64,000 nt of DNA from an uncultured Cytophagales bacterium (GCA_963761725.1 CAVXHP010000006.1:445534-509533), one strand, 5' to 3'; counted from the first letter of the stretch, positions 33,358 to 33,904 are shown. The notes: a model not told the origin generated them from the sequence alone. Numbers and translations: made by a program.

Positions 33358-33904
33358 ATGCGTACTTTTATTTTACAATCTTCTAACGAACAAGATTTGG
33401 AATTACTGCTAATTATGGCAAGTAGGTTAGTATACTGTTTAAAAAGTTTTGTAATGCTTTGACTGTACATTCAGTTCCCCAGAACTGAATGTTTCGCTTC
33501 CTCAGAAGCGAGATTTGTTTGCTTGAATCACGCTTCTGAGGAAGCATTTCGTTCAACTCTGAGGAGTTGAACGCACGAAATACATATAAACAAACTTTTT
33601 AAACAGTGTATTAGGTGTTGTTTGTAAAGAAATAGAAAAACCTAGTCAAGTAAATTCTTTAAATGAGATAGATGATACAAATAATGAAATAGAGAATTTT
33701 ATAAATAAAAATGAAGAAAGCACCTTTTTGTTAGAGGGATTAGGTTTGGAAAAAACTGTCATTCCTATCACTTATGATGAATTAGAAAAAAAGACTTTAA
33801 CCTCTCCTTACTCTCCAAATTTAGAAAAAGCTATATCTTATTTTGGTTCATTAGAAAACGACAAAAACGAAACTCTTGAAGAACTTTTAAACCTACTTGA
33901 TTAA
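33358..33904 (+). CDS. hypothetical protein gene interrupted by a MITE (restored ORF ~122 aa, MRTFILQSSNEQDLELLLIMASRLGVVCKEIEKPSQ...)
   Basis: ATG at 33358. The frame is broken at 33432 by a 179-bp element and continues in frame after 33614 once the element and one TTAG copy are removed. Its stop overlaps the next gene's ATG (TAATG at 33902-33906). Confidence 0.45.
33432..33610. mobile_element. 179-bp MITE with ~19-bp TIRs TATACTGTTTAAAAAGTTT / AAACTTTTTAAACAGTGTA and a 4-bp target-site duplication TTAG (33428-33431, 33611-33614); internal triple hairpin
   Basis: TIRs match at 18/19 positions. Internal hairpins are CATTCAGTTCCCCAGAACTGAATG, GCTTCCTCAGAAGCG...CGCTTCTGAGGAAGC and CGTTCAACTCTGAGGAGTTGAACG. 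Excision restores the ORF. Confidence 0.7.

Follow-up and report, generated by a model that had tools for sequence, protein, structure and literature searches.

Analysis of a 64,000-nucleotide stretch of DNA from an uncultured, Bernardetia-like marine Cytophagales bacterium (the window) revealed that a small conserved gene is interrupted by a 180-bp element with inverted ends, which lies between two copies of TTAG. The element very probably is a MITE that was inserted through its terminal inverted repeats (TIRs) by a transposase supplied in trans, with duplication of TTAG and disruption of the gene, and the enzyme would be of the IS5-type DDE class. Structurally, the element conforms to the definition of a bacterial MITE: it is small, carries TIRs, is flanked by a target-site duplication (TSD) verified in empty sites, is non-coding, and belongs to a family of copies. 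The features of the locus, all on the + strand, are as follows.

33358-33430, +, first 24 codons and one further base of the interrupted gene (ORF list, translation, homologue alignment)
33427-33430, +, left copy of TTAG, the 4-bp target-site duplication (sequence reading; single TTAG in the empty sites L057, L058 and L059)
33431-33449, +, left TIR, TATACTGTTTAAAAAGTTT (inverted-repeat search; the TIR is also found in small elements of L049, L045, L025 and L055)
33467-33492, +, hairpin A, an 11-bp perfect stem with a CCCA loop (repeat search, folds, kept across copies)
33496-33545, +, hairpin B, central and long, a stem of ~15 bp with further pairs (repeat search, folds, conservation)
33550-33573, +, hairpin C, a 10-bp perfect stem with a TGAG loop (repeat search, folds)
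33592-33610, +, right TIR, AAACTTTTTAAACAGTGTA (inverted-repeat search)
33611-33614, +, right copy of TTAG (sequence reading and empty-site alignment)
33615-33904, +, 3' part of the interrupted gene, start codon gone (ORF list, translation, homologue alignment)
33904-34530, +, 208-aa ORF, translationally coupled to the interrupted gene (ORF list, domain searches, comparison with relatives)

The element proper extends from 33431 to 33610, with 142 nt between the TIRs. The initial annotation had placed a 179-bp element at 33432-33610; the right end of that placement was correct, and the start was one base too high. Its reading of 19-bp TIRs that match at 18 of 19 positions agreed with our inverted-repeat search, and the TTAG that it saw on both sides was read at the two places listed above. 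When the window was searched for 19-nt inverted repeats with at most one mismatch and a spacing of 40-400 nt, only two loci were found, while 40 first-order Markov resamples of the window gave a mean of 0.075 such repeats. The inverted repeat of the element is far above chance. The other long inverted repeat, in the intergenic region at 15971-16097, consists of arrays of the heptamer AATTACG (AATTACGAATTACGAATT ... AATTCGTAATTCGTAATT) and is unrelated to the element; AATTACG repeats also flank an unrelated MITE in locus L025 (about 4365-4395 and 4566-4580).

The window holds one copy of the element. The longest stop-free stretch inside it is 56 codons, with no ORF above that, and a protein search with the longest stop-free translation, made with spurious ORFs on other copies in mind, returned no homologue. 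A tRNA search of the element found none, and an Rfam search gave no family at the gathering score, the sub-threshold matches being generic miRNA-precursor hairpins only.

The insertion became evident when the locus was aligned with strains that lack the element. Three empty sites were found, one in a genome assembly (L057, GCA_020049755) and two in Logan contigs (L058, SRR29699992; L059, SRR29699990), all with one TTAG and no element. The empty site reads ...GCAAGTAGG-TTAG-GTGTTGTTTGT..., given also as ...ATGGCAAGTAGG-TTAG-GTGTTGTTTGT..., and ~70 nt upstream and 30 nt downstream of it are identical to the window, while the overall flanking identity of these strains to the window is about 91-96%. 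Since a single TTAG in the empty sites corresponds to two copies around the element, these 180 bp were inserted with duplication of a 4-bp target site. The comparison with an orthologous locus lacking the insertion had been proposed in the initial annotation as a check, and all three empty sites match the predicted excision junction exactly.

The same alignment bears on a Tc1/IS630-type MITE, in which only TA would be duplicated and the element proper would run from CACTG to CAGTG. Most copies of the family end in TA-CACTG...CAGTG-TA, which recalls Tc1-like termini. In the alignment, the empty site reads AGG-TTAG-GTG and the filled site reads TTAG-[TA...TA]-TTAG, so that four bases are duplicated, and we consider the Tc1/IS630-type reading almost certainly wrong. 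Duplication of TA is ruled out by the empty sites, as the terminal TA dinucleotides arrived with the element.

The TTAG target lies within a gene. Joining 33358-33430 to 33615-33904, which amounts to removing the element and one TTAG, gives an ORF of 120 codons (MRTFILQSSNEQDLELLLIMASRLGVVCKEIEK...LLNLLD), and restoration of a reading frame by such an excision had been predicted from the sequence. Its stop codon TAA (33902-33904) overlaps the ATG (33904-33906) of the next ORF, again as had been read. A search of 5.8 billion proteins returned 11 full-length uninterrupted homologues of 106-120 aa, the top two 93% and 85% identical and the set reaching down to 54% across Bernardetia; Fleli_1137 of Bernardetia litoralis DSM 6794 is among them. 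All 11 align through the junction, at which R23 and L24 are invariant. At present, the 5' ORF reads on into the element as far as a stop at 33462, giving 34 aa (24 native and 10 foreign codons), and the nearest in-frame start of the 3' part is a TTG at 33728. The interrupted gene is now a pseudogene. Searches of the 120-aa protein against Pfam and PADLOC gave no match and no recognisable domain.

The filled site was also found in an independent metagenome assembly. A 21-kb contig (L082, ERZ25039505) matches the window at 99.4% identity over 6.6 kb, and its element is 100% identical, TTAGs included. As the identical insertion occurs in L082, the filled site is not an artefact. A Logan short-read contig (L083, ERR12040027) that is 99.8% identical to the window starts inside the element, 26 nt before its right end (L083 1-26). 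Assemblers break contigs in this way at repeats, which hints that the element is multi-copy in that genome.

These observations also weigh on the idea that the filled site reflects a chimeric assembly, or that an ancestral element was precisely lost from the relatives. An exact loss between the two TTAG repeats would leave the same two alleles. Against these ideas stand the identical filled site in the independent assembly, the uninterrupted state of 11 of 11 Bernardetia homologues of as little as 54% identity, and the presence of the same element at unrelated loci of other genomes; artefact or precise loss is thus very improbable. From the same comparisons, namely the uninterrupted homologues, the copies at unrelated loci and the independent filled assembly, the insertion is the derived state. 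It is common to a small clade of strains and absent from strains that are ~91-96% identical. The initial annotation had called the transposition recent, which is consistent with its absence from those relatives; on the other hand, it predates the split from a strain with 0.6% divergence over 6.6 kb.

We then examined the neighborhood of the interrupted gene. In relatives, the intact gene of 110-120 aa overlaps a 152-aa PIN-domain gene (L057, L059, L067 from B. litoralis DSM 6794, and L068 and L069 from Bernardetia sp. Wsw4-3y2), and this two-gene pair occurs in two neighborhoods, after an MVP-like gene and after dnaE. The small gene and the PIN gene appear to behave as a two-gene module of the VapBC type, an arrangement that does not hold in the window. 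From its gene position, the 120-aa protein would be the antitoxin. The 208-aa ORF sits where the relatives have the PIN gene; it gave no Pfam or PADLOC match and showed no BLASTP similarity to the PIN protein. Homology between the window and the relatives is lost at 33908 and regained near 35598.

A 1.7-kb cassette (33904-35607) that starts exactly at the overlapping start codon has taken the place of the PIN gene. Within it, a segment of ~350 bp is present twice (34514-34859 and 35261-35607), the copies having diverged to 81-89% identity, and each has a 43-aa DUF6934 ORF that overlaps a second small ORF. The cassette looks like a swap of the downstream partner in a toxin-antitoxin-like module. 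The gene hit by the MITE may already have lost its partner, or loss of the gene itself would have been tolerable after the replacement. A replaced PIN partner fits with the persistence of the disrupted allele in at least two sampled populations. Sample SRR29699992 (L058, 536-994) has a PIN gene broken up into ORFs of 53 and 87 aa, while the gene is intact in the sister sample L059; the module is thus decaying in several ways across these strains. Upstream, 30762-33239 encodes an 825-aa protein with major-vault-protein shoulder (PF11978, E = 5e-32) and repeat (PF17795) domains, a bacterial homologue of the eukaryotic vault shell protein; a vault-like protein of 822 aa occupies the same position in Bernardetia litoralis.

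The interior of the element is highly folded. Folds as DNA and as RNA both produced the three consecutive internal hairpins that had been noticed in the sequence. In the single-strand fold, a stem formed by the TIRs closes the three hairpins, with a fold energy of -52.8 kcal/mol as DNA (z about -12.9) and -80.8 kcal/mol as RNA (z about -12.3). The interior is nearly palindromic, its 51-nt arms showing 75% complementarity. Hairpin B may alternatively form two short hairpins (33495-33509 and 33531-33545), and a T-rich run comes after it on the + strand, which gives it a terminator-like look. A scan for sigma-70 promoters was uninformative, with a count equal to the shuffle expectation and a consensus that differs from that of Bacteroidota.

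An alignment of six copies with a consensus fold showed that the three hairpins are all kept, the variation falling mostly in loops and linkers. Six pairs were changed on both sides with pairing preserved: four are double compensatory changes in hairpin C of one copy from Wsw4-3y2 (L075), and the remaining two are G-U pairs, one in hairpin A (at its top) and one in hairpin B. At the base of hairpin C in L045, a C-G to U-A change, outside the consensus pairs, was read by eye from the alignment. Within the window element, hairpins A and C are inverted versions of each other that differ at three compensated pairs. As evidence of stem conservation these changes are suggestive only, as the independent sequences are few and replacement of modules would look alike. 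In both the window and the replicon of Bernardetia, perfect hairpins with TGAG/CTCA loops were found only in these elements, other than four short, A+T-rich stems that are due to chance.

The element belongs to a family. When 185,579 species-representative genomes were scanned for the exact TIR, 56 loci were returned, and the whole element was then searched against these by BLAST. Real relatives were found in L049, L045 and L025, the rest being chance 19-mers or conserved genes. The copy in L049, from an uncultured Cytophagales MAG, is 97% identical over 155 nt and has TTAG on its left flank, its right end being lost. L045, from a 'Flexibacter sp.' CG MAG, holds a complete copy, 84% identical, with (T)TTAG on both flanks, and a metagenome scan with the core motif returned only this locus again (as L060 and L061). 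In L025, from the same 'Flexibacter' MAG, an element of 158 bp (4408-4565) carries the same TIRs around an unrelated hairpin-rich interior and has CTAA on both flanks. A Saprospiraceae MAG has three loci with the same TIR around another unrelated interior of ~115 bp, one copy being flanked by (T)TTAG on both sides (L055a) and one by ATAAA (L055b). Apart from L025 4408-4565, the elements of these two families with unrelated interiors are at the following places.

L055, 7817-7931, small element with the same TIR
L055, 3022-3137, small element with the same TIR
L027, from 2477, small element with the same TIR
L047, 6617, minus strand, small element with the same TIR

The shared 19-bp TIR is TACACTGTTTAAAAAGTTT, which is itself nearly palindromic (ACTNTTTAAANAGT). 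It is conserved, with at most two mismatches, among the 'Flexibacter' MAG, the Saprospiraceae MAG and the Bernardetia-like window. Since the same TIR surrounds unrelated interiors, the TIR, rather than the core, would be what the enzyme reads. Five of the six elements with both ends readable have TTAG or CTAA flanks; because a TTAG is expected by chance at ~0.6% per site at this base composition, the recurrence of TTAG/CTAA shows that the target is specific. Neither the core motif nor the TIR gave a match in scans of viral contigs, and a 23-nt match in a Calothrix plasmid was rejected as a chance match that is not an element end. A literature search (the TIR string, Bernardetia MITEs, and TTAG-duplicating Bacteroidetes MITEs) produced nothing specific, the only text match of the TIR being an unrelated mouse paper.

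BLAST against plasmids further revealed 15 matching places on a 602-kb replicon of Bernardetia sp. Wsw4-3y2, of which ~490 kb was fetched. The copies there (at least five) are decayed, with TIRs that are degenerate or deleted and a hairpin core that is 76-90% identical. The replicon also contains TIR-less clusters of the same TGAG/CTCA-loop modules (L075 7222-7350 and 34755-34845, L066 40915-41010, and L063 44339-44464); one of these lies between argB and the neighboring carbamoyltransferase gene in the arg gene cluster, and two start directly after (T)TAG. The clusters may have arisen from MITE copies by loss of the ends, or may form a separate class of REP-like repeats. Deposited as a 'plasmid' (NZ_CP147018.1; loci L062-L066 and L071-L075), the replicon is no accessory plasmid but a second chromosome or chromid, as it carries many core genes, namely gyrB, parE, rplS, trpS, thrS, murD, uvrA, recF, radA, rodA and lepA and the arg operon.

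The hairpins and the TIR-less clusters raise the main rival to the MITE reading, a single-strand element of the IS200/IS605 type (PATE- or REPIN-like). In that case, a Y1 transposase would read the hairpins and insert the element 3' of TTAG, and the right TTAG would be the cleavage site of the element itself. The empty sites would look alike for a 4-bp duplication and for a TTAG-ending element inserted 3' of TTAG. The strong hairpins are subterminal, 36-37 nt from each element end, clusters of the same modules exist that have no TIRs, and Y1 transposase genes exist in Bernardetia. However, the distances from the hairpins to the ends are symmetric, and a 19-bp TIR conserved around unrelated interiors is a signature of TIR recognition, not a feature of IS200/IS605 elements. 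In all three family copies whose flank can be read, TTAG is oriented alike with respect to the core, which agrees with a Y1 enzyme but would be expected by chance in one case out of four, and one Saprospiraceae copy is flanked by ATAAA instead of TTAG. The REP arrays beside three Bernardetia Y1 genes are also unrelated in sequence to the element. Taken with these points, the Y1 mechanism is decidedly unlikely. The three Y1 genes of Wsw4-3y2 are IS200-like, and each has its own short palindromic arrays (L064 4752-4928; L071 43580-43640 and 44527-44620; L075 39340-39440 and 39960-40030), as expected for RAYT/REP systems, and one of the sets begins with GTAG.

For the preferred reading, a MITE mobilized through its TIRs, the events could be reconstructed as follows. 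A transposase supplied in trans would bind both TIRs, and the element would be inserted into the TTAG within codons 24-25 of the 120-codon gene. Repair after a staggered cut in the target would duplicate TTAG, and the 184 added bases would cause a frameshift and a stop after 10 foreign codons. The hairpin and T-rich run on the + strand may also lower transcription of the coupled 208-aa ORF, a putative polar effect.

Which enzyme acted was approached through the TSD and the TIR. IS5 duplicates 4 bp with the motif 5'-YTAR-3' (PMC5009759). The duplications of the family are 4-bp and of the YTAR type in the window, L049 (left flank), L045 and L055a (TTAG) and in L025 (CTAA), with ATAAA in L055b as the exception. 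A 5-bp duplication is equally readable in three copies (TTTAG in L045 and L055a, ATAAA in L055b). The TIR contains CTGTTTAA, a core present in IS5-family TIRs of Bernardetia (GAAGCTGTTTAAGAAT), Adhaeribacter, Chondrinema and ISBf6. Since TTAG/CTAA fits YTAR and the TIR with CTGTTTAA resembles those of Cytophagales IS5-family elements, the enzyme may be a DDE transposase of the IS5 family, although we regard the family as roughly an even call; a DDE transposase acting on the TIRs is much better supported in general than this family assignment. Unlike the IS5-family TIRs, which begin with GA or GG, the TIR of the element begins with TAYAC. Canonical IS5-group TIRs begin with GG, and that of the MITE begins with TA.

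IS5-family elements of Bernardetia and its relatives were then compared with the MITE. On the Wsw4-3y2 replicon, an ISBf6-like element has the TIR GAAG[C/T]TGTTTAAGAAT and a 3-bp TSD; its TIR matches that of the MITE at 11 of 19 positions, including the shared run CTGTTTAA. A second IS5-family element of the replicon has the TIR GAGCCTGTTCGAGTTT and the TSD TTA. The ISBf6-like transposase was also used in a tblastn search against plasmids, and TIRs were extracted from six relatives. Five of these (from Chondrinema, Adhaeribacter and Bacteroides) have similar TIR cores and, where it is readable, a duplication of 3 bp with variable sequence, while the Flammeovirga element (L079) gave no convincing TIR. 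The core common to the MITE and the IS5-family elements of Bernardetia, Adhaeribacter, Chondrinema and Bacteroides (ISBf6) is [C/T]TG[T/A/G]TT[T/-]A[A/G]. The ISBf6-like elements, which belong to a DDE_Tnp_4 clade of Bacteroidota, make variable 3-bp duplications, whereas the element makes a 4-bp duplication of TTAG, and they were rejected as the parent because their TSDs are of 3 bp; these have no fixed sequence. The ends of the two IS5-family, the IS1182 and the IS4 elements of Wsw4-3y2, together with the surroundings of the three Y1 genes, were also inspected, and none has the MITE TIR.

The initial annotation had suggested a BLASTN search for the family and for an autonomous parent. The family was found, with relatives in L049, L045 and Wsw4-3y2 and a conserved TIR; no parent was found in the genome loci, the replicon and the viral contigs searched. 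Specifically, no autonomous element with these TIRs was present in the window, the 56 genome loci, the ~490 kb of the Bernardetia replicon or the viral contigs, the public scans being made with exact 19-20-mers, and none of the 56 loci has a second TIR within 4 kb that encloses a transposase.

Among known systems, the element is most like other bacterial MITEs. It resembles the Correia elements of Neisseria, RUP of Streptococcus pneumoniae, MITEAba12, the IS982-derived MITECca01 of Cardinium (PMC9769881) and the elements in a census of prokaryotic MITEs (PMC11602168) in size, TIRs and TSD, and bacterial MITEs in general in its non-coding folded interior, scattered copies and dependence on a transposase in trans. 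Its sequence is unrelated to the named MITE families that were checked. About 90% of prokaryotic MITEs are intergenic (PMC11602168), and the intragenic site of the element is therefore a minority case but not a surprising one. Like REPINs/BIMEs and the PATEs of IS200/IS605, the element is a near-palindromic doublet of hairpin modules with stems kept by compensatory changes, and like REPINs/BIMEs it has TIR-less relatives between genes, one within the arg gene cluster. In contrast to REPINs and PATEs, it has long TIRs and a demonstrable 4-bp repeat, and its hairpins are not preceded by a GTAG-type 5' tetranucleotide. The PIF/Harbinger-Tourist MITEs are eukaryotic, belong to a superfamily related to IS5, and have a 3-bp (TTA/TAA) duplication. 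They have CTGTTT in their TIRs, and the preferred target of PIF (CWCTTAGWG) contains TTAG. This resemblance to the element may serve as a lead, the TSD being 3 bp there versus 4 bp here.

A broader reading joins several of these observations, and we would give it only a small chance. The TIR TACACTGTTTAAAAAGTTT would define a superfamily across Cytophagia and Saprospiria with interchangeable interiors, whose transposase would be absent from the current species-representative genomes or not recognised in them. The TGAG/CTCA-loop modules, with their compensated stems and their TIR-less presence in operons, would then be either REP-like cargo with a host function, which could be, for example, mRNA stabilisation or termination, or the real substrate of an orientation-specific mechanism that targets TTAG.

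The locus provides a clean natural case of a bacterial MITE within a gene for which both the filled and the empty alleles are at hand, and this pair fixes the limits of the element, the TTAG duplication and the target preference without experiment. In the annotation, the two short ORF fragments should be merged and labeled as a pseudogene of the conserved partner of a PIN-domain gene. While the general understanding of transposition is unchanged, the results add an undescribed MITE family for the poorly studied Bernardetiaceae and show that small elements of several unrelated kinds share one TIR in distant Bacteroidota.
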